From contig JAZSOD010000010.1 of assembly GCA_045536775.1 (NCBI GenBank), positions 1 to 57,902 on the forward strand: a DNA stretch of 57,902 bases, in the 5' to 3' direction. Under the pieces are notes generated by a model. That model was not told the origin of the DNA, ran no database searches, and saw only the letters and a program-made list of their open reading frames with translations. How positions within the stretch are numbered: the first letter of the stretch is position 1; every line of letters begins with the position of its first letter. Source of the stretch: Eubacteriales bacterium (GTDB taxonomy: Bacteria; Bacillota; Clostridia; Oscillospirales; CAG-272). A program made the translations under genes and the position numbers. Shown here piece after piece: positions 31,698 to 45,995 of this stretch.

Positions 31698-32204
31698 TTA
31701 TCTTGTACATAATTGATCAAATTGCCATCGTAGCGGGTTTTCATAGATGTAATTTCGTATTTCACAATAATCGTCACGATTTCTCACAACATGATCATAA
31801 AAGGAACGTTGGAAAATCTTTTCTCCCGTGGTGCTACGTGACTTGTTTATATCTTTTGTTGCTTGATATTTAAGCCATCCAATCACCTCGTTCACCGTAG
31901 GGGAGGGGTCTCCCCTCCCGTCAGTTTTGATGAATGACAACAAAAGATGTATATGATTCGGCATAATCACATAACAATCGACAGATATTTCGGGGTATTT
32001 ATTTGGCAATTCTTGAATCCAAGAATCTACTACTTTTCCCTCTTGCGATAATTGCGGGAGGGGAGACCCCTCCCCTACAATCGTGGAAAGAATGTTTTTT
32101 CGATTTTCCGTACATATAGTTATGAAATATGCTCCGTTTGTAGCATAATCAAAATGCTTCAACCGAGTAGATTTTCTCTTTGGCAATTCTTTGCCTTGGT
32201 TCAT
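31698..32204 (-). mobile_element. REP-associated tyrosine transposase (RAYT, IS200-like Y1 HUH)
   Basis: RKSTRL..FDY..NGAYFITICT, YVIMPNHIH (HUH), FQRSFYDHVVR, YIYENP; associated with GTAG REPs. Confidence 0.9.
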
Positions 32205-32264
32205 TTTATCACCACTTTGATAACATTTCTTGTGCGGTAACGGGAGGGGAGACCCCTCCCCTAC
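31897..32264. repeat. three identical 23-bp REPs GTAGGGGAGGGGTCTCCCCTCCC
   Basis: 31897-31919 (+), 32056-32078 (-), 32242-32264 (-); first two lie inside the RAYT CDS. Confidence 0.9.
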
Positions 32265-32311
32265 AGCAAAAATCAAATATAACCACCGAATAATGTCTAC
32301 TGCCTTTTCAC

Positions 32312-35300
32312 TCAAAAGAAGCTTATCTGGTCGAATTCTTCCTCGGGCTTGGGCGCTTCAGCCTTTGCCTCTGCTTTCTTTTCTTCCTTCTTCTCCTTGG
32401 GTAGAGGTGCAAAGTCGAAAAGTGTCATCTGATTGGTTTCATTGAGCCCGTCAAGTGCGCCGTTCTTACGGAGAAGCTCAACGAGAGTCTTTGAGAGTGA
32501 GCAACGCGTGCTCATATCCTCAACAGACATAAACTCGCTTTCCTCTCTCGCCGCAACTATGTTCTGCGCCGCGGTATCGCCAAGACCGGGAAGTGACGAG
32601 AACGGCATTCTTATCTTACCGTCCTCGGGAAGAAACGCACTTGCCGCGCTCCTTCTGCAGTCTACGTTCAAGAACTTTATTCCTCTTGCCATACACTCGC
32701 AGACGAGCTGGAATATATCGTAGGTGTCCTTTTCCTTCTGCGACGCCTCCTTACCCTTCTTTTCTATCTCCTTCATATACGCCTTGACAGCACCTATTCC
32801 CTTGCCCACGATCTCGGCATCAAAGCCGCCCGGAGCAACAGACAAGAACGCCGCGTAGAATTCAAGCGGATAGTATATCTTATACCATCCGAGACGTATT
32901 GCCGAGATAACGTACGCCGCCGCGTGCGCCTTCGGGAACATATACTTGATCTTCAGACAGCTGTCAATATACCAATCGGGCACGTTGTGGTCCTTCATCA
33001 TCTGTATACGCTCGGGAGTGAAGGTCTTGGGCGCTTTACCCTTACGGGTGTCCTCCATTATCTGAAATGCGTCCTTCGGAGGCACGCCCTTATAGAGCAG
33101 ATAGGTCATAATACTGTCTCTTGTTCCGATAACGTTTGAAATAGTACAGGTTCCCGCGTCGATAAGGTCCTTGGCGTTACCCAGCCAAACGTCCGTACCG
33201 TGCGAGAGTCCCGATATCTGCAAGAGGTCGGAGAAGCCCTGAGGCTTTGTGTCAACAAGCATCTGACGCACGAATTTCGTTCCGAATTCGGGCAGACCGT
33301 AAGTTCCGACGGGGCTGCCTATGTCCTCCTCGGTTACTCCGAGAGGCTTGGTGGACAAAAACAGCTCGTAAACCTTTTTATCGTTCATAGGAACGTCTAG
33401 AACGCTGGTGTTGGTATACTTCTCAAGCCACTTATATTTGGTCGGCACATCGTGTCCGAGTATGTCGAGCTTGAGAATTGTATCGTGAAGAAATTTGTAA
33501 GTAAAGTGGGTGGTTATAGTACCTGCGCTTTCCTTTTCGGCAGGATACTGAACAGGTGTGAAATCGTAAACATCGTACTCTCTCGGCACGACTATGATTC
33601 CGCCCGGATGCTGACCCGTGGTCTTCTTTACGTCGGTACAGCCGTCTACAAGTCTTTGAACCTCTGCCTTGGGGAGAAGTATCTTTCGCTCCTCAAGGTA
33701 CTTCTTTACGTAACCGAACGCGGTCTTCGACGCGAGAGTACCTATAGTACCTGCGCGGAACACGTTTTCCTTGCCGAAGAGCACCTCGGTATATTTGTGC
33801 GCGTCTTCCTGCACGTCGCCCGAGAAATTAAGGTCTATATCGGGTGATTTATCGCCGTAGAATCCAAGGAAGGTCTCAAACGGGATATCGTGACCGTCGC
33901 GGTACATATCCTCTCCGCAATGAGGACAATTCTTCGGCGGCAGGTCAAAGCCCGAGCCGACAGAACCGTCTGTTATAAACTCGGAATAACGGCACTTCGG
34001 GCATCTGTAGTGCGGCTGAAGCGGGTTTACCTCTGTAATACCCGACATCGTCGCCGCAAAGGACGAGCCGACAGAGCCTCTCGAGCCTACGAGATAGCCC
34101 TTGCTTTCACTGTTCCACACAAGCTTCTGGGCTATCATATACATAATAGCAAAGCCGTTTCCGATTATGGATTTAAGCTCTCTGTCAAGTCTTTCGGACA
34201 CGATATCGGGAACCTTTCCCTCAAACTCGTACATCTCACGTGCCTTCTTGTGACACATTTCATCGAGCTCCTCGTTAACTCCGGGAAGGCTTGGCGGATA
34301 GTTGCCCTCAGGGATCGGGCGTATCTTCTCTATCATATCCGCAATGAGATTGGTGTTGGTTACTACCACCTCGTACGCTTCATCCTTGCCGAGATACTCA
34401 AATTCCGCGAGCATTTCCTCGGTCGTTCTGAGATAAAGTCCCGTTTCTCTGTCCGCATCCTTATATTTGTTTGAAACGAGTATCTGACGCTCTATCTCAT
34501 CCTCTTTGTTTAAGAAATGTGCATCACAGGTAGCACAGACAGGCTTTCCGAGCTTTTTACCAAGTCGGTAAATGCGACGGTTGATGTCACGTATCGCTTC
34601 CATATCGGGCAGGATGCCGTCGTCGACCATAAATGCGTTATTTGAAAGCGGCTGTATCTCAAGGTAATCGTAATAGCGTGCTATACGCTCGATCTCGCTT
34701 TCGGTGGCGTTATTGAGTATCGCCTGATAAAGCTCGCCTGCCTCGCAGGCAGAGCCGAGTATAAGTCCCTCACGGTGAGTATCTATCACCGATTTGGGGG
34801 TTCTCGGGTATCTCTTATAGTAGGTGAGGTAGCTCTGGGATACGATTTTATAAAGGTTCTTAAGTCCCGTCAGGTTCTTGACGAGAATTATCTGATGGTA
34901 GGGTCTTGCTTTAAGCGGGTCTGCGCTCTCGCTCATTTCGCGCAAAAGCTCCTCGAGGTTCCTCATTCCGTCCTTCGAGAGCGTATCGAACATACATTTT
35001 AAGATACGCGCAAGTATTTCGGCGTCATCGGACGCTCTGTGGTGGTTGAAATTGCCGAGCTCATAATATTCCGCGAGGGTATCGAGTTTGTGGTTCTTAA
35101 GTCCTTTATTAAGGAAACGCGAAAGTGCTACGGTATCAAGATATGAGTTCGGGAATGGGATCTTTGCGTTTTCCGCCGCACGCCTTATAAAGCTTGCGTC
35201 AAAATTCGCGTTGTGGGCAACGAGTATCCTGTCGCCCGCAAAGTCGAGAAACGCCTTGACCGCCTCGTCCTGCGAGGGTGCGCCTGCAACCATTTCGTCG

Positions 35301-37853: not shown

Positions 37854-39167
37854 ATGAAAAAATTTGCTTTTATCGGCGCGGGAAGCCTGCAGTTTACAAC
37901 AAGCTGCGTTCGCGATCTTCTTACCTTTGATGCCTTTAAGGACTGCGAAATTGCGCTTATGGACATCAATCCGTCAAATCTCGCAAACATCGAAAAAATA
38001 GTCAGAGATATCGTAGAAAAGATGAACTGTCCGAGGTGCAAGGTTGTTGCCACTCCCGACCGTGTTGAAGCCCTGAAGGGTGCTGACGGTGTTCTCTGCA
38101 CGGTTTTCAACGGCGACATCGACATCTGGCAATACGACATTATTATCCCGAAGAAATACGGTATTGATATCAACGTCGGTGACACGAGAAGCATATCGGG
38201 TATTTTCAGAGCGCTCAGAAACATTCCTCTTATGCTCGATATTTGCAAGGATATTGAAAAATACTGTCCGAACGCGGTCTTCTTGAACTACACAAATCCT
38301 ATGTCTATGCTCTGCGGCGCAATGCAGAGATATTCAAACGTTGAGGTGACGGGACTTTGCCACAGCGTTCAGAGTACGGCGCAAATGCTCGCCGAGTGGC
38401 TGGGTGTTCCGTTTGATGAGCTTACCTATAAGAGTATGGGTGTAAACCACCAGTCCTTCTACACGGTGCTTGAGCACAACGGAGAGGACCTTTACCCGAG
38501 ACTCAAGGAGCTTGTCAAGGACCCCGAGGTATATAACCGCGAGCAGGTTCGTAACGAAATGCTCTTAAAGCTCGGATACTACGTTACCGAGTCAAGCGGA
38601 CATAATTCCGAATACAATCAGTGGTTCAGAAAGAGACCCGACCTTATCGAAAAATACTGCACTCACGGAACGAACTGGAATCCCGGTGAGCACGCGTATT
38701 CGCTCAATCTTCGCAAAGACAGACGTGAGAATATACAGAAGCACTACGACCAATGGTACGAGAAGGAATTCGACCCCAAAAAGAGTCCCGAGTATGCGGC
38801 AGACATATTCAACGCGCGCCTCGGCGACGGCAAGCCGTTTATATTCAACGGAAACGTAATAAACAACGGTTCTATCCCAAATCTTCCCGCCAACGCTTGC
38901 GTTGAGGCACCCGTTGTTGCCGACAGAATGGGCTTCAAGACCACGATAGCAGGTCCTCTGCCCGAGCACATTGCGATACTCGTAAACACCACTGCGAGAA
39001 TGGAAACGCTCGTTGTTGAGGCGGCTATGAAAAAGAGCCGTGAGATGGTTTATCACGCGGTTTATATGGATCCCCTCTCATCCGCGGTATGCTCTATGGA
39101 TGAGATCAAGAATATGTGCGACGAGCTGTTCGAGATCAACAAGGATTTCCTTGGAGATTACAGATAA
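37854..39167 (+). CDS. melA: glycoside hydrolase family 4, alpha-galactosidase-like
   Basis: FIGAGS NAD motif, LNYTNP, GLCHSV, GVNH, TESSGHNSEY. Confidence 0.88.
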   Translation: MKKFAFIGAGSLQFTTSCVRDLLTFDAFKDCEIALMDINPSNLANIEKIVRDIVEKMNCPRCKVVATPDRVEALKGADGVLCTVFNGDIDIWQYDIIIPKKYGIDINVGDTRSISGIFRALRNIPLMLDICKDIEKYCPNAVFLNYTNPMSMLCGAMQRYSNVEVTGLCHSVQSTAQMLAEWLGVPFDELTYKSMGVNHQSFYTVLEHNGEDLYPRLKELVKDPEVYNREQVRNEMLLKLGYYVTESSGHNSEYNQWFRKRPDLIEKYCTHGTNWNPGEHAYSLNLRKDRRENIQKHYDQWYEKEFDPKKSPEYAADIFNARLGDGKPFIFNGNVINNGSIPNLPANACVEAPVVADRMGFKTTIAGPLPEHIAILVNTTARMETLVVEAAMKKSREMVYHAVYMDPLSSAVCSMDEIKNMCDELFEINKDFLGDYR

Positions 39168-39184
39168 GCGAAATTAAATAAATC

Positions 39185-39411
39185 AAAATCGGAATCAAAA
39201 AATACTCAGCTTCAGTTATTGTAGGATATACAAATAGCGGAGAAATGCTTTTGTATGATTTGATTGATATGGAGCCTGTTAACTTCGCAATAAAAAAGAA
39301 AGTGTCCCCAACCGGCCGTCGAATTCTGCGAAGAATTCAGCCGCCGACAGAGAGGAACCACTTTCTAACAACAGAATACCACAAAATCAGTCTGCTGTCA
39401 ATAGTAATAAT
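39185..39411 (+). pseudogene. truncated, frameshifted C-terminal remnant of a polyvalent-protein module
   Basis: KIGIKKYSASVIVGYTNSGEMLLYDLIDMEPVNFAIKK ends in the same GCAATAAAAA (AIK) end-of-module motif as two other modules; shifts frame near the A-run at ~39292 into the shared linker NRIPQN..VNSNNMQS. Confidence 0.55.
39289..39401 (-). ncRNA. putative antisense promoter plus hairpin sRNA unit 0
   Basis: TTGACA(39401-39396)-17 nt-TATTCT(39378-39373) with extended TG; terminal stem AGAAAGTG 39297-39304 / CACTTTCT 39359-39366; U-tract follows. Confidence 0.6.
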
Positions 39412-39496
39412 ATGCAATCTGAGCAAAGTTATTACGATAACGACGTTGCAGCTGAAGCTTCTGCAAGAGATGCGGCGTTTTTCATTGAGGATATTG
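39368..39496 (+). repeat. direct repeat B (129 bp), second copy 44871-44999
   Basis: Near-identical sequence encoding NRIPQN..VNSNNMQS..YYD.DVAAEASARDAAFFIEDI. Confidence 0.9.
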
Positions 39497-40130
39497 TCGA
39501 GGATGAGGACGGAAACATACACGAAAACACTCTTGTTGCACCTAAAAAGTCGGCTTCGCTTAAAAACAATTTATCTATGTCAGACGTAGACAATTTAAGG
39601 GAAATCTACAAAGAGAAAGGCGAAATATCTGTTAATGATTTCGCGTCGAAAGACATTAAAGCTTCGGAAAATTGGGCAAAAAATTTTTATTCCGAAATTG
39701 GGAATAAATCTCCGTTCTTTAGAGCTTGGTTTGGTGATTGGAGAGCTAACGAAAAAACAAAAGTTTCTATCGTCTTTGCTAACAAAAAAACAGGCAAAAA
39801 TCCAAGAGGCACTTTCATAAATAAAGATACTGGATGAAATATAAATTCATCAAGCGTTGGATACGATGAAACTGTTTCGCATAGTGGCAAGGACAAGCTT
39901 TCTCTTATTGCGATGAGAAGCATTGATGAAATTATTAAAAATTCTATTTTGTTTGATACAGAAGTTTCGTCGTGTGACAGAGGAAAAAAATCAATTTATA
40001 CTGCTTTCATGCATAAATTTTATTCTTGTGTTGCAATTGATGGCAAACATTACATTGCAAAAATGGCAGTAGACGAAAGTTATGCACCCGGGCAAAATGA
40101 TACGAATAAAAAGTTTTACCACGTAAGAGC

Positions 40131-40238
40131 AATAAAAATAGAACCCATATCGTCCGTGGGAATAGGTGTAAACCACATACCCATTATGGACGAAACAGGT
40201 TCTGTTATTATAGTATCAGATTTGTTCAATCTTGTCAA
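40131..40238 (-). ncRNA. putative antisense promoter plus hairpin sRNA unit 1
   Basis: TTGACA(40238-40233)-17 nt-TACTAT(40215-40210) with extended TG; stems AGAACC 40140-40145 / GGTTCT 40198-40203 and TCGTCC/GGACGA; U-tract follows. Confidence 0.6.
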
Positions 40239-40270
40239 GACTTACGACAAGGAATTTAATCCCAAGCCTG
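40219..40270 (+). repeat. direct repeat C (52 bp identical), second copy 42938-42989
   Basis: GATTTGTTCAATCTTGTCAAGACTTACGACAAGGAATTTAATCCCAAGCCTG in both. Confidence 0.92.
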
Positions 40271-40340
40271 TGTCTTCCGCCGCATTTTTGCTATTCTTCA
40301 ATAAAAACTTTTGACTTACTTCTAAATACCCCGTAAAATT

Positions 40341-41669
40341 TCATTCAAGAAAGCACTCAATAACATTGTCATCATACTGTGCAATGCGTTCCTGTAATTT
40401 CTTTAGCCTTTTTTTGGCTACATCAAAGCCTTTCTCTGCGGATTGTGTGTACCATTTAATAGCCTCATTATAATCTCTTTCAACTCCATTGCCATGTTCG
40501 TAGCAAAAGCCAAGATTATGCTGAGCATAAAAATTCCCCTTTTCAGCCGAAAGCCTGAAAAAACGTGCCGCCTCTGTATAATTCTTTTCTACTACCTCCC
40601 CGTCACAGTAACAACACCCCATAGCATTCAGACCTTGAGAGTCTCCCTGCGCCGCAGACAATTCATATAGACGAAATGCCTCGGCAACATTCTTTTCCAC
40701 TCCAAATCCGTTTTTGTAACAATACCCGAGGGAATGTTGCGCAAAGGCATCGCCCTGCTCTGCCGATAGCATATACCAACGTACTGCCTCTGTGTAATCT
40801 TTATCTACTCCTATGCCCGTTTCATAACAATGTCCTAAATTATACTGTGATCTGGAATTCCCTCGTTCCGCTGATAGTCTGTACCAGTATACTGCCTCTG
40901 TGTAGTTTTTTTCTACTCCCCGGCCATGCTCGTAACAAAGTCCCAAATTACACTGTGACTTAGTATTCCCTTGTTCTGCCGACAGTCTGTACCAATATAC
41001 TGCCTCTGTGTAGTTTTTTTCTACTCCATTTCCATATTCATAGCAAACTCCCAAGCTAAATTGCGAATTTGCGTTTCCTTGTTCTGCCGACAGTCTGTAC
41101 CAATATACTGCCCTTGTGTAATTCTGTTCCACACCCCTACCATGATAATAACATTCCGCAAGTCCATTCTGAGCAGCGTTGTTACCGCTTTCTACACCAC
41201 GCCTATATAGACGAAATGCCTCACTATAGTCCTTTGCAATCCCTAGTCCATAATAATAGGCTTTAGCAAGATTGTAAATTGCCCCACGATTTCCCTGCTC
41301 TGAAGACAGTTTAAACAACAGAACCGATTCTTCAAGATTCTTTTCAACAGCAAAACCTGTCTTATAACAAATCCCCAAATAATTCTGAGCCCGATGATCA
41401 CCAAGCTTGGATATTTTTTCCAATTTTGAAATATCAGCATCACCGCGCTTAAAAGCAATATACAAGCTCATATCATCTTCTTGCATCTGACCAAATCTTT
41501 TAAAGTAACCTTTTTCACCTGATAGTTTTATAGTAATCACTTTGTGGAATTTAGCCAGATAGTTCTCCGTGTCGTAATCCACATTCTTGGGATACGGCAC
41601 ATTTTGAAATGAACATTTAGGGCATCTCTTTAACGACGTTTCAAATCCGCAACACAAGCAAGCACCCAT
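40341..41669 (-). CDS. Sel1-like (TPR) repeat protein with N-terminal zinc ribbon
   Basis: ~9 36-aa repeats (AQxxLGxCYxxGxGVEKNYTEAVYWYRLSAEQG); CxxC..CxxC N-terminus; GAAGGAG RBS before ATG 41669; no signal peptide seen. Confidence 0.9.
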   Translation of the reverse strand: MGACLCCGFETSLKRCPKCSFQNVPYPKNVDYDTENYLAKFHKVITIKLSGEKGYFKRFGQMQEDDMSLYIAFKRGDADISKLEKISKLGDHRAQNYLGICYKTGFAVEKNLEESVLLFKLSSEQGNRGAIYNLAKAYYYGLGIAKDYSEAFRLYRRGVESGNNAAQNGLAECYYHGRGVEQNYTRAVYWYRLSAEQGNANSQFSLGVCYEYGNGVEKNYTEAVYWYRLSAEQGNTKSQCNLGLCYEHGRGVEKNYTEAVYWYRLSAERGNSRSQYNLGHCYETGIGVDKDYTEAVRWYMLSAEQGDAFAQHSLGYCYKNGFGVEKNVAEAFRLYELSAAQGDSQGLNAMGCCYCDGEVVEKNYTEAARFFRLSAEKGNFYAQHNLGFCYEHGNGVERDYNEAIKWYTQSAEKGFDVAKKRLKKLQERIAQYDDNVIECFLE

Positions 41670-41706
41670 AATTCTACAGTCTCCTTCACAGAGCATTAAA
41701 CTGGTA

Positions 41707-41802
41707 AAGACAGTCGACAACAGTAAAACGGAAGCCCATTCGTTTCACCAATATCTAAGACTGTCTTCATTCAATTATATGCTTTTTTTACGCTATTGTC
41801 AA
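41707..41802 (-). promoter_or_regulatory. perfect sigma-A promoter plus end-paired leader hairpin upstream of Sel1 gene
   Basis: TTGACA(41802-41797)-17 nt-TATAAT(41779-41774); AAGACAGTC 41707-41715 / GACTGTCTT 41759-41767. Confidence 0.8.
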
Positions 41803-41824
41803 CATTGAAAAGTTCTATGCGGAA

Positions 41825-44800
41825 ATGCCGAACGTTGCTCAGAGATTCCTCAATGCGATCAAGCGCTTTGTTGCAAGGATAAAGAGAGCTTTCGGCAAGT
41901 CTGATTCTGCAAGCGAGCTTGAGAGGGCGGCTGAGCTCTGGGAGGCTTCGCTTTACAGAATACGCAGAAACGTTGACAAGCAGCGCGCACGCGAAGAAAA
42001 GAAGGCGGCAAAGGCTGAGAAAAAGGCTGCCGAAGAGGACAACACCGTTATAGACGCCCGTATAAACAAAAATGCCGACCTTGATATCGGAGAAACCGAT
42101 ACAGAGGTCGACGCGCTTGGTATATATGATGAGGAATACGAGGGTGACGACGTTTCGTATGACGAAGATCCTGCGCAGGACTACTATGACGGTCCGGGCG
42201 TAGATGATGGCACCGGATTTGAGGACGTGTCTGAGGATGACGATGCCGGGGATGATGGCGACGGGGGCAGTGCGTACTTCATTGAGGATATTGACGATGA
42301 GGCTGTAAATACGCTTCGTTCAATCGGAGAGAAATCTGTCAACGAATTTGCGTCAGAGGAGTTAAAGAAAGCCGAGCCGTTTGCTCGAAAATTGTGGAAA
42401 GAGCTCGGAGTAAAATCACCTTTCTTCCGCGCGTGGTTTGGTGATTGGAGGGCGAACGATGCGAGCAAAGTTTCTATTACTGAAGTCGAAACCATAAATA
42501 TTGATGATGCGGTAATGGCAAACGGAGATTATAAAATCGAAGACACCGGATGGACTATTCACGCCGGGAAAACACTTCGCGAGGAAACAAAGCACTATGC
42601 TCGCGAAAAGAAGATATCCGTGAGAGCTTTGTCAACAATAGAACAAATTCTTAACAATTCTGTTCTTTTGGATACCGAAGTTTCAGTTCCTGATTCAAAA
42701 AATAAGTCGGACGGGACAGCTTTGATGCACAAACTGTATACTATCATACAGTATGATGGCAAATTATATATAGCTAAAACGACCGTAGAAGAATATTTGG
42801 ACACAAATTCCAAAACGATTAAACGCAAAGGTTATCATCTTCGCGCAATAAAAATAGAGACAGCCGGCGGACGCGCGACGGAAGAAACTTCCGCCTCCAC
42901 ATCAAGGCCTGACACTGTCTCTATAAACAGTATATCCGATTTGTTCAATCTTGTCAAGACTTACGACAAGGAATTTAATCCCAAGCCTGCGTCAAAGATC
43001 GTAAACGAAGACGGTACGCCTAAGGTAATGTATCACGGTAGTAATGCGAAATTTACTGTCTTTGACAAGAGAAAAGCAAAGTCGTCCGGATATTACGGCC
43101 GAGGATTCTATTTCTCAGACAGCAATAATCAAGCAGGCCTGTATGGAGAGCAGTACAGTGTATATCTTGACGTCAAAAATCCGTTAAAACCGGGAGGAAA
43201 CAAGATATCTGGCGCTCAATTACATAACTTTCTTAAGGCTGTCGCCGAAAACGAAGATTATTCTATCGAGAATTACGGCACGTATGATATCGCAAAAATC
43301 GCAAATAGCATAACAAGCACCGACACTTTTGCGGTAATAAGCGATATTAACGCTACCGCGATAGGCGATTTCGTCGAGGCCGTTAAGTTGTTCAACGAGG
43401 TAAATGGCACGAAATATGACGGAATAGTCGTCCCCACCGAAACCGTTGTATTCGAATCTACGCAAATAAAATCTGCCACTGATAATATCGGAACATTTAA
43501 CAAAAACGACCCCGATATTATGATGTTCATCGAGGACGTTGAGGACGTTGGTGCTTACGTAACCTCGTCAGAGCTTGAGGCGAATGCCAAGAAGCATATC
43601 AACGCGAGAGCTTCAAATGAGATCACCGATATGGGTATTCGTAAAATGGCGAGAGAAACAAAAATACCCGAGGCGGATCTTCAGAACCTGCGAAGAATAT
43701 ACAGAAGGTGCCGACTTAATAAGGGCGACTCCGAGGAGTTCAACAGGCTTATTTCTATTGCACGCGGTCTTGCTACTACTTCTCTTATGAGACATTCCGG
43801 AAGCGATAAAGTTTACTACAACGGGGTTTCCGAAAAAATCGTGGACACTGTTGCAAACGAGCTTATCAGGATGATAGCCGATGACACATATACTACTCCC
43901 GATGACGTCAAAGCCGAGCTCGAGAGGGCGGCTGAGCTCTGGGAGGCTTCGCTTTACAGAATACGCAGAAACGTTGACAAGCAGCGCGCTCATTCGGAAA
44001 AACAGGCGGCAAAGGCTGAGAAAAATGCTACCGAAGAAGACAACACCGTTATAGACGCCCGTATAAACAAAAATGCCGACCTTGATATCGGAGAAACCGA
44101 TACAGAGGTCGACGCGCTTGGTATATATGATGAGGAATACGAGGGTGATGACGTTTCGTATGACGAAGATCCTGCGGAGGATTACTATAACGGCCCGAAA
44201 AGTGAAGACGACGAGTTAGAGAATCTGTCCGGGAATAGTGATTCCGAGAATGATGGCGACGGGGATAATCCGAGTTTCATTGAGGATTTTGATGTGGATT
44301 CTCCTCAAATAATAACAAACTACAGTGACGCTATTGATAACATTTTGACGGTATCAGATGATGATGCAAAAAAATATGCAGAAAACAGAACGGTTGTGGA
44401 AGTCTGTGCTAATACTCCCTCTGTTATACTTGACAATGTAACAGAAGCTAAAAACTTAAAAATAATCATAAACTACACAAAGCTCTACCTTGCAGTAAGA
44501 AAAAGCGGCATTATAAAAGGAAATTATCATAATCTTGGAGCTGAAGTAGCAAAGAACTTGCACAAATATTTAGAAAATCCGGATGCAATTATCAGATTAG
44601 ACAACGGAAGACTAAATGTTTTATTCACCGTAAAAACCTCGAACGGAAATAACGGGCTAATTTCCGTTGAACTCAATAGCACAAAAGACGTTGGCGGAAA
44701 AAACGAGAAATATAATGTAATCGTTACCGTTATGAGTTCAAATAACAATTACATTAAAAATCTTACCTCTCGTCCCGGAGTCTCGGTCAAATACAAAAGA

Positions 44801-45193
44801 GAGGACCTATCGCAAGTGAATCCCCAACTGTATAAATGGTTGGCAACTATTAACGATAGGACCTCTCCTGACAATAGGATACCACAAAACAATCCTACTG
44901 TCAATAGTAATAATATGCAATCTTCGCAAAATTATTACGATGACGATGTTGCAGCTGAAGCTTCTGCGAGAGATGCGGCGTTTTTCATTGAGGACATTGA
45001 AGGCGACGAGGGATACGTTACCTCGGCTGAGCTTGAGGCGAACGCCAAGAAGCATATCAATGCGAGATCTTCAAACGAGATCACCGATATGGGTATTCGT
45101 AAAATGGCGAGAGAAGCAAAAATACGGCGGATTTTCCGCCGTATTTTTGCTTGTTTAATTTATTCATCAATGGGGTCAAAAACTCTTACGTAG
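41825..45193 (+). CDS. mosaic fragment of a phage-type large polyvalent protein (LPD3-like, ART-PolyVal-like and MuF-C-like modules)
   Basis: LPD3-like ~42290-42860; ART-like VNEDGTPKVMYHGS..GFYFS..VYL..TQIKSATDNIGTF ~43000-43500; MuF-C-like NTPSVIL..YHNLG..LENPDAII ~44290-44800; acidic linkers; weak RBS, both ends look truncated. Confidence 0.7.
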   Translation: MPNVAQRFLNAIKRFVARIKRAFGKSDSASELERAAELWEASLYRIRRNVDKQRAREEKKAAKAEKKAAEEDNTVIDARINKNADLDIGETDTEVDALGIYDEEYEGDDVSYDEDPAQDYYDGPGVDDGTGFEDVSEDDDAGDDGDGGSAYFIEDIDDEAVNTLRSIGEKSVNEFASEELKKAEPFARKLWKELGVKSPFFRAWFGDWRANDASKVSITEVETINIDDAVMANGDYKIEDTGWTIHAGKTLREETKHYAREKKISVRALSTIEQILNNSVLLDTEVSVPDSKNKSDGTALMHKLYTIIQYDGKLYIAKTTVEEYLDTNSKTIKRKGYHLRAIKIETAGGRATEETSASTSRPDTVSINSISDLFNLVKTYDKEFNPKPASKIVNEDGTPKVMYHGSNAKFTVFDKRKAKSSGYYGRGFYFSDSNNQAGLYGEQYSVYLDVKNPLKPGGNKISGAQLHNFLKAVAENEDYSIENYGTYDIAKIANSITSTDTFAVISDINATAIGDFVEAVKLFNEVNGTKYDGIVVPTETVVFESTQIKSATDNIGTFNKNDPDIMMFIEDVEDVGAYVTSSELEANAKKHINARASNEITDMGIRKMARETKIPEADLQNLRRIYRRCRLNKGDSEEFNRLISIARGLATTSLMRHSGSDKVYYNGVSEKIVDTVANELIRMIADDTYTTPDDVKAELERAAELWEASLYRIRRNVDKQRAHSEKQAAKAEKNATEEDNTVIDARINKNADLDIGETDTEVDALGIYDEEYEGDDVSYDEDPAEDYYNGPKSEDDELENLSGNSDSENDGDGDNPSFIEDFDVDSPQIITNYSDAIDNILTVSDDDAKKYAENRTVVEVCANTPSVILDNVTEAKNLKIIINYTKLYLAVRKSGIIKGNYHNLGAEVAKNLHKYLENPDAIIRLDNGRLNVLFTVKTSNGNNGLISVELNSTKDVGGKNEKYNVIVTVMSSNNNYIKNLTSRPGVSVKYKREDLSQVNPQLYKWLATINDRTSPDNRIPQNNPTVNSNNMQSSQNYYDDDVAAEASARDAAFFIEDIEGDEGYVTSAELEANAKKHINARSSNEITDMGIRKMAREAKIRRIFRRIFACLIYSSMGSKTLT
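41914..42192 (+). repeat. direct repeat A (~280 bp), second copy 43915-44193
   Basis: ELERAAELWEASLYRIRRNVDKQR...EDNTVIDARINKNADLDIGETDTEVDALGIYDEEYEGDDVSYDEDPA near-identical at DNA level, offset 2001 bp. Confidence 0.93.
42847..42957 (-). ncRNA. putative antisense promoter plus hairpin sRNA unit 2
   Basis: TTGACA(42957-42952)-17 nt-TATACT(42934-42929); perfect 10-bp IR ATAGAGACAG 42854-42863 / CTGTCTCTAT 42915-42924; U-tract follows. Confidence 0.62.
43556..43667 (+). repeat. direct repeat E (112 bp), second copy 45014-45125
   Basis: Encodes YVTS.ELEANAKKHINAR.SNEITDMGIRKMARE.KI in both. Confidence 0.9.
44789..44904 (-). ncRNA. putative antisense promoter plus hairpin sRNA unit 3
   Basis: TTGACA(44904-44899)-17 nt-TATCCT(44881-44876) with extended TG; 13/14 IR GAGAGGACCTATCG 44799-44812 / CGATAGGACCTCTC 44854-44867; U-rich tail. 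Confidence 0.6.
45114..45152. terminator. perfect 18-bp hairpin, bidirectional terminator at right edge of polyvalent patch
   Basis: AAGCAAAAATACGGCGGA-TTT-TCCGCCGTATTTTTGCTT. Confidence 0.85.
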
Positions 45194-45995
45194 TCGACTA
45201 TGAACTCGTCGGGCATTGCAGATTTAAGAAGCTCGTTCGGCTGGTCGCTGTAGCGGTATCCGTCACACTCGGTCGTAATGAGGATAAACTGCTCGGTATG
45301 CGAAACGGGTCCGTCATGGTGTCCGTCAAACACGCCGTCGATATAGAAGTCATAGCCGTTCGGTGTCCAGTTTACCGCGAAGGTATGGAACTGTTCGTGG
45401 TTCGGGATAGAAAATCTGTCGGGCGCGAATTCTGTCTCGTGCTCGGTTACAAATTTTTCCTTATGCTCTGCTCCGTATCCGCCCCAATGCAAGAAATGGG
45501 GAATCATTCTGCCAGGCTCAAAGCTTTCCATTATATCAACATCAACGCCTGCCTTACCGGGATCTGTACAGCATCCGATTATCGGACTCTGAAGCCAGAA
45601 CGCGCTCCACCAACCGCCTTTCTGCTGTGTTCGGCAACGGCACTCGTAGTAACCGTATTTATGTAAAAACTTCTGCTCTTCATGCTTGGCGATAGGCCAC
45701 ACGAACTTTCCGTAGCCGTTTTCCTCGGGGGGATTATCCATAAAGTTGCTTCCTGTCTGGAGCTGGGCGCTGTAGTAGTGTCCGTCCTTTTCAACAAGCT
45801 TTATATGCACGCAGCCGTCCTTGACCTCGACACCCTCGTCGGTATAGGTCTTATGCCAGTTATGCATAATTCCGCGTCTGAAGCCCCACTTGGTTGTATC
45901 GAGCGTGTCTCCGTCAAACTCATCGCTCCACACAAGCTTCCATTTGCCGTCGGGAAGTAAGCTTGACTCGTGTCCTTCAACCTCGTATTTTGCAT
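45160..45995 (-). pseudogene. glycoside hydrolase family 16, frameshifted just after its start codon
   Basis: WKLVWSDEFDG, KYGYYECR, WSAFWLQS, FHTFAVNW, FIVDYVRVF; RBS plus ATG at 45995 is 1 nt out of frame; GTG 45933 is the first in-frame start. Confidence 0.7.

Follow-up and report, generated by a model that had tools for sequence, protein, structure and literature searches.

Promoter-hairpin-terminator units antisense to polyvalent-protein genes of Clostridia: candidate cis-antisense RNAs encoded within inter-domain linkers

Antisense small RNAs inside the genes of mobile elements are already known. Lambda OOP is a constitutive antisense RNA of ~77 nucleotides (nt), with its own promoter and terminator, that overlaps the coding 3' end of its target and directs cleavage by RNase III. 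RNA-OUT of IS10 is a single long stem-loop. In the account given in PMC5006887, RNA-OUT is a 69-nt antisense RNA whose promoter lies inside the transposase gene; it represses the sense messenger RNA (mRNA) and acts more strongly in trans as copy number rises, an effect named multicopy inhibition. The type I antitoxin RNAs, exemplified by bsrG/SR4 as described in PMC3834814, are cis-encoded, structured antisense RNAs that control the decay and translation of a harmful mRNA. Here, we analyze a 57,902-nt stretch of DNA from a Eubacteriales bacterium (contig JAZSOD010000010.1, analyzed over its whole length and hereafter called the window), in which a fragmentary polyvalent-protein gene carries, antisense to its coding strand and within the codons of its inter-domain linkers, a series of units that each combine a putative promoter, a hairpin, and a U-rich tail.

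Like RNA-OUT, the RNAs predicted here would be short and antisense, would start from promoters inside a protein gene of a mobile element, and would be complementary to its mRNA. RNA-OUT is one unit at the 5' end that covers the ribosome-binding site, whereas here up to 16 units per gene lie in internal linkers, each with its own terminator and a different sequence, and the hosts are Clostridia. OOP is also a single unit, placed over a gene end and an intergenic region; it is neither encoded in frame within linkers nor found in several copies along the domain junctions of a gene. In type I systems, each toxin is a small, usually hydrophobic peptide paired with one RNA, in contrast to the present case, where the RNA genes would lie wholly inside a multi-domain frame and the sense frames encode LPD3/ART/MuF_C proteins of 1122 to >2600 amino acids (aa). 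ToxI, of the type III systems, is a same-strand array of short direct repeats that is located upstream of the toxin gene and processed by the toxin. An earlier note on this DNA had drawn the analogy with such systems, in which a structured RNA is proposed to neutralize a protein, but the analogy fails on orientation and repeat structure: the units are antisense, each has a promoter and terminator of its own, and they are not short repeats. The palindromic elements of Rickettsia are in-frame palindromic DNA sequences translated within proteins, copies of one family that have no promoter of their own. They resemble the present units in that the peptide is a passenger of an element acting at the nucleic-acid level, and differ in that every hairpin described here has a different sequence and carries promoter and terminator signals. 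The host gene itself, with LPD3, ART-PolyVal, and MuF_C domains, belongs with the polyvalent proteins of Iyer et al. (2017; PMC5512222), in which one polypeptide combines several LPD or effector domains, though it is fragmentary here.

A regular-expression scan for TTGACA-N17-TAnnnT over both strands and all 57,902 bases of the window returned five matches, all on the minus strand and all within 39373-44904. This region belongs to a 5.9-kilobase (kb) polyvalent island (39245-45193, plus strand) that contains two fragments of a polyvalent-protein gene. Folding the minus strand from the seventh base past each -10 box delineated the following units, given with their predicted RNAs.

39373-39401, minus strand: promoter of unit A1, in fragment 1; TTGACA, 17 nt with TGn, TATTCT (motif scan)
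39287-39366, minus strand: predicted RNA of unit A1; hairpin 39366-39297 plus U-tail 39296-39287 (UUUUUUAUUG); -31.5 kcal/mol, z -3.45
40210-40238, minus strand: promoter of unit B1; TTGACA, 17 nt with TGn, TACTAT (homologs at junction B in 80 loci, described below)
40130-40203, minus strand: predicted RNA of unit B1; hairpin 40203-40140 plus tail AUUUUUAUUG; -28.9 kcal/mol, z -4.85
41774-41802, minus strand: promoter of a fifth unit; TTGACA, 17 nt, TATAAT, 12/12 consensus (motif scan)
41707-41767, minus strand: hairpin of the fifth unit with a weak U-tail, then GAAGGAGA and the ATG of a Sel1 gene; z -4.44
42929-42957, minus strand: promoter of unit B2; TTGACA, 17 nt, TATACT, 11/12 consensus (motif scan)
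42846-42922, minus strand: predicted RNA of unit B2, between LPD3 and ART-PolyVal; hairpin 42922-42856 plus tail AUUUUUAUUG; -35.6 kcal/mol, z -3.25
44876-44904, minus strand: promoter of unit A2; TTGACA, 17 nt with TGn, TATCCT (motif scan)
44787-44868, minus strand: predicted RNA of unit A2, directly 3' of MuF_C; hairpin 44868-44798 plus tail UUUUGUAUUUG; -34.2 kcal/mol, z -5.74

Four of these sites had been singled out in the earlier note, and the window-wide scan recovered all of them at the same positions, with an extended TG in three of the four (-35 ends at 39401, 40238, and 44904) and a minus-strand A as the seventh base past the -10 box (39366, 40203, 42922, and 44869). Folding confirmed an inverted repeat at or near this base that is followed by a U-rich tract: the hairpins of the four units measure 64-71 nt and begin at the A, or 1 nt later in unit A2 (44868), and each has a U-rich tail on its 3' side, UUUUUAUUGC being common to three of the tails. 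The A1 RNA is predicted to be ~75-80 nt long. Although all four units hold up, the earlier count missed the unit at 41774-41802, and the four sites make up two paralogous junction pairs (39365-39508 versus 44868-45011, 86% over 144 nt; 40214-40274 versus 42933-42993, 97% over 61 nt), which therefore stand for two independent promoter origins, not four. The four hairpins differ in sequence despite the paralogous junctions. The adjacent domains of the paralogous modules are only 45% identical as protein, as against 86-97% for the junction DNA, and junction identity so far above that of the diverged modules is compatible with shuffling at the junctions. No short tandem repeats were found at the four sites. 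A search of 39000-45400 with Rfam 15 gave sub-threshold matches only, the sole one on a unit being mir-3912, at 19.8 bits against a gathering score of 95. The fifth unit runs into the ribosome-binding site and ATG of the minus-strand Sel1 gene, which looks to be transcribed from it.

The conservation of the promoters was analyzed in 80 loci from other species (456,197 nt) that encode relatives of the LPD3-junction-ART segment at 36-53% aa identity. These loci are mostly from Oscillospiraceae, Acutalibacteraceae, and other Clostridia of the gut and rumen; most belong to metagenome-assembled genomes, and some of their frames are broken. A protein alignment anchored on the Val of the '...LVK...' junction (junction B) yielded 87 sites in the 80 loci. 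TTGACA is exact on the minus strand at 84 of the 87 sites (TTGACG at two, TTGACT at one) and is followed downstream by 17 nt, TAnnnT, a hairpin of differing sequence, and a U-rich tail. In the sense frame, the Val codon is GTC at 87/87 sites against a GTC usage of 19% of Val codons in the same frames; the codon before it ends in T at 85/87 sites, spanning seven different amino acids; the codon at -7 from Val is NTA at 87/87 sites (ATA 49, GTA 37, CTA 1); and the junction-B Ser is AGT in 47/48 cases versus 15% usage. At synonymous positions, and even at non-synonymous ones, the bases therefore follow the promoter and not the protein. Promoter-hairpin-terminator modules antisense at domain junctions, as the earlier note had described them, are real and conserved in homologous loci.

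Throughout the 80 loci, the exact motif occurs 157 times in the antisense and 17 times in the sense orientation. Antisense spacings of 14, 15, 16, 18, and 20 nt give 3-6 matches each, and N19 gives 53, a peak that may be read as overlapping TATACTAT-type -10 boxes. For most of the motif sites (138/157), the surrounding frame is open throughout the stretch tested. The coding pattern at the units is [S/T]-[I/V]-[S/P/A]-[D/Q/E..]-x4-V-[K/N], preceded by a free-form peptide that is encoded by the hairpin. The peptide between the hexamers is free to vary, the only constrained residues being those encoded by the hexamers and the -16 element, and the linker peptide is largely dictated by the predicted RNA gene. 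Features outside the search pattern were counted over 157 distinct units: the spacer has G at position 16 in 136 units and T at position 13 in 144, TGn precedes the -10 box in 94, the sixth nucleotide past the -10 box is a pyrimidine in 155, and the seventh is a purine in 143. The T.TG spacer element is what we take to be the -16 element of Gram-positive promoters. By their hexamers, spacing, -16 element, and pyrimidine/purine start, the promoters are putatively of the housekeeping sigma-A/sigma-70 type. The genome to which the window belongs, 1.61 megabases (Mb) in size, contains 176 copies of the exact motif against 12.3 expected under uniform composition (~14x), and 17 copies lie at most 80 nt upstream of one of its 35 transfer RNA (tRNA) genes; on these two grounds, we regard the motif as the organism's real strong-promoter consensus. 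Exact TTGACA-N17-TAnnnT is also a convenient promoter marker for annotating this genome.

Whole units were searched with a strict detector that required a promoter (-35 with at most one mismatch, TAnnnT at 16-18 nt), a hairpin (a stem of at least seven consecutive pairs closing 44-100 nt and starting 3-10 nt past the -10 box), and a tail (at least six T in the next 9 nt). This detector found 141 antisense versus 2 sense units in the 80 loci. Over the window, it returned exactly A1, B1, B2, and A2 and nothing on the plus strand; there is no unit directly 3' of the ART domain, in agreement with the earlier remark that the ART module lacks one of its own. Over the 1.61-Mb genome, the detector gave 21 matches, with exact TTGACA only in the four window units. 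Unit density varies; in locus L080, a 2315-aa open frame (6.9 kb) contains 16 exact antisense units. Positions 1-700 of this locus hold four tandem promoter-hairpin repeats of 150-177 nt that encode a repeated linker peptide only, with no domain between them, so that L080 would effectively be an array of small-RNA genes inside an open reading frame. Minus-strand genes behind weak-tail units, besides the Sel1 gene of the window, are candidates only in L013, L037, and L070 and form no general pattern; the weak-tail flag applies to 33/161 units and mostly reflects a best-hairpin search that overran the true hairpin. Phage and plasmid collections gave only remote matches to the ART domain, at <45% identity, and no close relatives.

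The folding analysis comprised 161 units, that is, the locus units with 130 nt downstream and the five units of the window. A closed hairpin is present in 159 of them, with a median length of 68 nt (interquartile 65-78) and a commonest start 6 nt past the -10 box, and the 10-nt tail after the hairpin contains a mean of 6.0 T. These hairpin counts rest on a best-hairpin search; comparisons of minimum free energy (MFE) and z were made on fixed windows, which avoids that bias. The 85 nt past the promoter have a median MFE of -29.9 kcal/mol versus -16.7 kcal/mol in 1000 random windows from the same loci (p 2e-61; p-values in this study overstate significance because related species are not independent samples).

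The hairpins also covary. A single alignment of all 85 junction-B hairpins gave 0 predicted pairs, and class-wise alignments were used because the hairpin classes are not alignable by sequence. Two of these, A2 and A3, contain the stem covariation in homologs that the earlier note had anticipated. In alignment A2 (13 sequences, including both B units of the window), 93.2% of cells are paired versus 74.2% after shuffling and 36-47% after sliding, with double-sided changes at 11/18 pairs. In alignment A3 (28 sequences), the corresponding figures are 90.6%, 72.4%, and 30-49%, with double-sided changes at 11/14 pairs. For each alignment, 0/500 shuffles reach the observed pairing. The hairpin of unit B1 covaries with those of L025 and L021 in alignment A2, where covariation is also seen for unit B2. 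The stem of unit A2 is kept through two double compensatory changes relative to the homologous unit of 12 near-identical viral contigs. A weak signal of the same kind comes from anchor-based pairing without folding, in which pairing is 58% in register versus 45% with swapped arms and ~40% out of register; the 3' anchor was located in 120/161 units.

Several measures assign the structure to the antisense strand. The antisense fold is stronger than the sense fold in 140/159 units, by a median of 5.6 kcal/mol, and G-U pairs number 526 on the antisense versus 188 on the sense strand. Dinucleotide-shuffle z over a fixed 75-nt segment has a median of -4.27 antisense versus -3.28 sense (paired p 1.3e-4), and the U-tract is confined to the antisense strand. 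The units have the makeup of intrinsic terminators, a stable stem followed by a U-tract on the transcribed strand. A scan for terminators with short loops misses them because their 'loop' is a structured insert of 45-60 nt.

A subset of hairpins has a conserved interior. In alignment A3, a conserved CUA/GAA internal loop arises from the motif GCUA(A/G)G...(C/G)UGAAC. At the DNA level, the complement of this motif falls in codon phases 0/1/2 14/16/4 times and in phases 0/2/1 13/14/1 times; being kept across codon phases, the motif is therefore conserved as nucleic acid, not as peptide. The internal loop occurs in about one-third of the hairpins, and 103/159 hairpins are without both motifs. R1, an RNA model of the CUA/GAA class, matched in 1/151 sampled genomes of the order, where the hairpin sequence is the same as that of L035 and lies behind an exact promoter, antisense to a 658-aa frame. 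Run on 54 sources, R1 gave four more matches, all antisense at junction B. Columns 34-36 and 54-56 of alignment A3 (for example, in L018 and L017) form a conserved 3x3 internal loop, with CUA or UAA opposite GAA, between covarying helices; this loop is reminiscent of UAA/GAN-type or loop-E-like modules, to which it may be akin.

We read the units as putative, complete small transcription units that are antisense to the polyvalent gene and written into its inter-domain linker codons. As judged from these alignments and folds, each unit has a sigma-A-type promoter, a 60-76-nt hairpin that closes from the predicted first base, and a U-tract, and its predicted product is an intrinsically terminated RNA of ~70-85 nt with a base-paired 5' end. 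By analogy with RNA-OUT of IS10, lambda OOP, and the type I antitoxin RNAs, these RNAs may act as cis-antisense silencers of the polyvalent gene, a reading to which we give a probability of about 0.5. We favor it because only the expression signals, the closed stem-loop, and the terminator are kept while the sequence drifts, and the sequence would be free to drift because complementarity to the sense mRNA comes automatically. The units lie opposite their presumed target, are perfectly complementary to it, and fold as stem-loops, as is the case for cis-encoded antisense RNAs. In this model, host RNA polymerase would make the RNAs constitutively, and each would be perfectly complementary to the matching hairpin of the polyvalent mRNA. 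After loop-loop pairing, the RNA and the sense transcript would form a duplex, followed by cleavage or a translation block. Several units per gene would keep a large and potentially harmful gene silent in the resident cell, and silencing of incoming copies with the same module may also be possible in trans.

A number of observations weigh against such silencing. The expression, ends, and abundance of the RNAs are all features that we infer. Most known cis-antisense regulators act at the 5' end or ribosome-binding site of their target or, where this is a short toxin mRNA, at its 3' end; the targets here would be internal linkers of a very long mRNA, and pairing would have to act through cleavage. 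The CUA/GAA loop found in about one-third of the hairpins is unneeded for a pure cis-antisense RNA and hints at some partner, perhaps a protein. The sense strand also folds well (z of -3.28), so that the preference for the antisense strand, though significant, is not absolute. Typical short terminators do not have closing stems as long as these. Finally, the relatives on viral contigs carry a single exact unit in 8.6 kb, and unit density is therefore not a fixed property of polyvalent genes.

A more novel reading would make polyvalent genes two-layer arsenals of protein domains and in-frame small-RNA arrays, the latter being an RNA-level system in its own right, with the RNAs made at once by host polymerase and either silencing copies of the same module, in an exclusion of incoming elements similar to multicopy inhibition, or disarming host factors; we hold this as a tentative and rather doubtful possibility. 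It would be just as speculative to propose, along the same lines, that chromosomal remnants are kept for their RNA units, the protein frame being broken while the promoters and hairpins look intact. The corresponding idea that one unit was co-opted to drive the Sel1 gene is equally tentative.

We consider it unlikely that the RNAs are trans-acting early products, made by the host upon entry of the element and serving as decoys or inhibitors of defense or RNA-processing proteins, in what would amount to an RNA layer of the counter-defense role proposed for polyvalent proteins. The promoters match the host housekeeping consensus, translation is unneeded, the closed 5' end predicts stability, and a subset of hairpins shares a conserved internal loop, all of which would suit such a role, as would the proposal that polyvalent proteins are first responders after invasion (PMC5512222). 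A host target, however, would normally impose one motif, whereas 103/159 hairpins lack both, and there is no known host partner.

Transcriptional interference or insulation, in which polymerases that bind and fire head-on damp or grade sense transcription, the hairpin and U-tract serve only for prompt termination of the antisense transcript, and the RNA is a by-product, also seems quite unlikely. Near-consensus promoters with an immediate terminator, the many units per gene (16 in the 6.9 kb of L080), and the unconstrained hairpin sequence are what it would lead one to expect. Yet a short terminator would suffice for this purpose, and the hairpins span 60-76 nt, begin exactly at +1, covary along their inner helices, and conserve internal motifs.

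The proposal of the earlier note, that each hairpin RNA is an antidote or guide that binds, neutralizes, guides, or serves the adjacent domain and travels along with it in the manner of a type III system, appears improbable. Units are physically coupled to domain ends, and the part of the claim that concerns co-inheritance stands in so far as the LPD3-unit-ART order is kept in 80 loci; the CUA/GAA loop, kept across codon phases, could in addition be a protein-binding site. The notion of a dedicated RNA for each domain finds no support in these analyses and is weakened in several ways: units follow many unrelated linkers, hairpin sequence varies freely even beside homologous domains, and the tandem units of L080 have no intervening domains and therefore fit stand-alone RNA modules better than one antidote per domain. 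Moreover, the segment opposite the RNA comprises a variable linker and the final codons of the domain before it; a catalytic core is not included. Its orientation and the lack of short processed repeats mismatch type III systems, and the toxin status of LPD3 and MuF_C is only putative.

It is very unlikely that the conserved entity is a DNA-level element, such as a recombination joint or a single-stranded DNA structure for shuffling or replication, whose likeness to a promoter is secondary. The sense strand folds too, and paralogous junctions that are 97% (61 nt) and 86% (144 nt) identical next to domains of 45% protein identity suggest exchange, but conservation falls exactly on the bases of a sigma-A promoter, with its 17-nt spacing, -16 element, and pyrimidine/purine start, the G-U pair excess is on one strand, and the U-tract is on that strand only. 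That the pattern arose by chance, or as a side effect of codon bias and a conserved peptide, has a negligible probability: although the four window sites come down to two independent types of junction, synonymous positions are fixed in defiance of codon usage, the strand counts are 157 versus 17 with only the 17-nt spacing enriched apart from the secondary N19 peak (53), the peptide between the hexamers varies freely, and the stems covary.

Whichever way the RNAs act, cis-antisense silencing included, the arrangement was not found in the literature searched, which covered polyvalent and ART-PolyVal proteins, antisense RNA, MuF toxins, and antisense promoters at domain boundaries; the earlier note had likewise known of no description. 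The paper that founded the polyvalent-protein class does not use the terms 'promoter', 'antisense', 'small RNA', or 'linker' in its main text (0 occurrences of each; PMC5512222). As antisense small RNAs inside mobile-element genes have precedents, what would be new is the presence of multiple in-frame units at the junctions of one gene across dozens of species. If the RNAs are made, their genes would constitute a class that is widespread in Clostridia of the gut and rumen and has so far gone unannotated; its members lie within open reading frames, outside the reach of searches for intergenic RNA motifs. If the interpretation is correct, this would be a clear case of dual coding, with the linker peptide of one gene determined by the promoter, transcription start, structured RNA, and terminator of another. 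Polyvalent proteins, whose expression control the founding paper, in its main text, leaves undescribed, would also gain a regulatory or combative RNA layer. The predicted 5' ends, sizes, and strand are precise, and the promoter can be separated from the protein by synonymous changes, which makes the proposal directly testable.

The remaining features of the island are the following.

39245-40314, plus strand: fragment 1 (LPD3), pseudogene (domain search and paralog comparison)
40341-41720, minus strand: Sel1-repeat gene, 459 aa, between the two fragments (Sel1 E 1.7e-94, 9 repeats)
41825-45193, plus strand: fragment 2, 1122 aa, with LPD3, ART-PolyVal, and MuF_C; truncated at the terminator (domain search)
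45114-45152, no strand assigned: conventional terminator, an 18-bp perfect hairpin that closes the island (terminator scan)

Fragment 1 is classed as a pseudogene because it has an in-frame TGA (39836-39838), a frameshift near 39300-39360 inside hairpin A1, and no proper start. The paralogous LPD3 module reads TGG (Trp) at 42551-42553, the position that corresponds to the TGA. Recoding of TGA as Trp at 39836 was considered and rejected: under table 11, no other long frame of the window is interrupted, and fragment 1 has a frameshift as well. Both RNA units of the pseudogene nevertheless appear intact. The 3' end of fragment 1 is fused to half a terminator, a copy of the island terminator at 40276-40297 that is 94% identical to its right arm, and the sequence suggests that deletions joined junction sequences to the terminator. 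Both polyvalent fragments end in the same terminator sequence (40275-40297; 45110-45152). The Sel1 gene looks intact, and no counterpart of it turned up in the other loci or in the rest of the same genome.

Fragment 2 contains a direct repeat of 283 nt at 94% identity (41914-42196 versus 43915-44197), which consists of ELERAAELWEASLYRIRRNVDKQRA... and an acidic linker and suggests a recent internal duplication or recombination. An F-I-E-D peptide recurs at the start of each module after acidic low-complexity stretches (AAFFIEDI, AYFIEDI, MMFIEDV, PSFIEDF), with approximate starts at 39485, 42280, 43520, 44275, and 44985; it could mark the boundaries of modules or sites at which the polyvalent protein is processed.

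The island is flanked by core genes, with those for an AraC regulator, a GH4 glycosidase, and polC on one side and GH16, ispG, rseP, and dxr on the other. Phage or conjugation genes are not among these flanking genes, and the island has the look of a remnant in the chromosome and not of a functional phage or conjugative element. Directly next to polC is a gene for an IS200-like Y1 transposase (31698-32315, minus strand).

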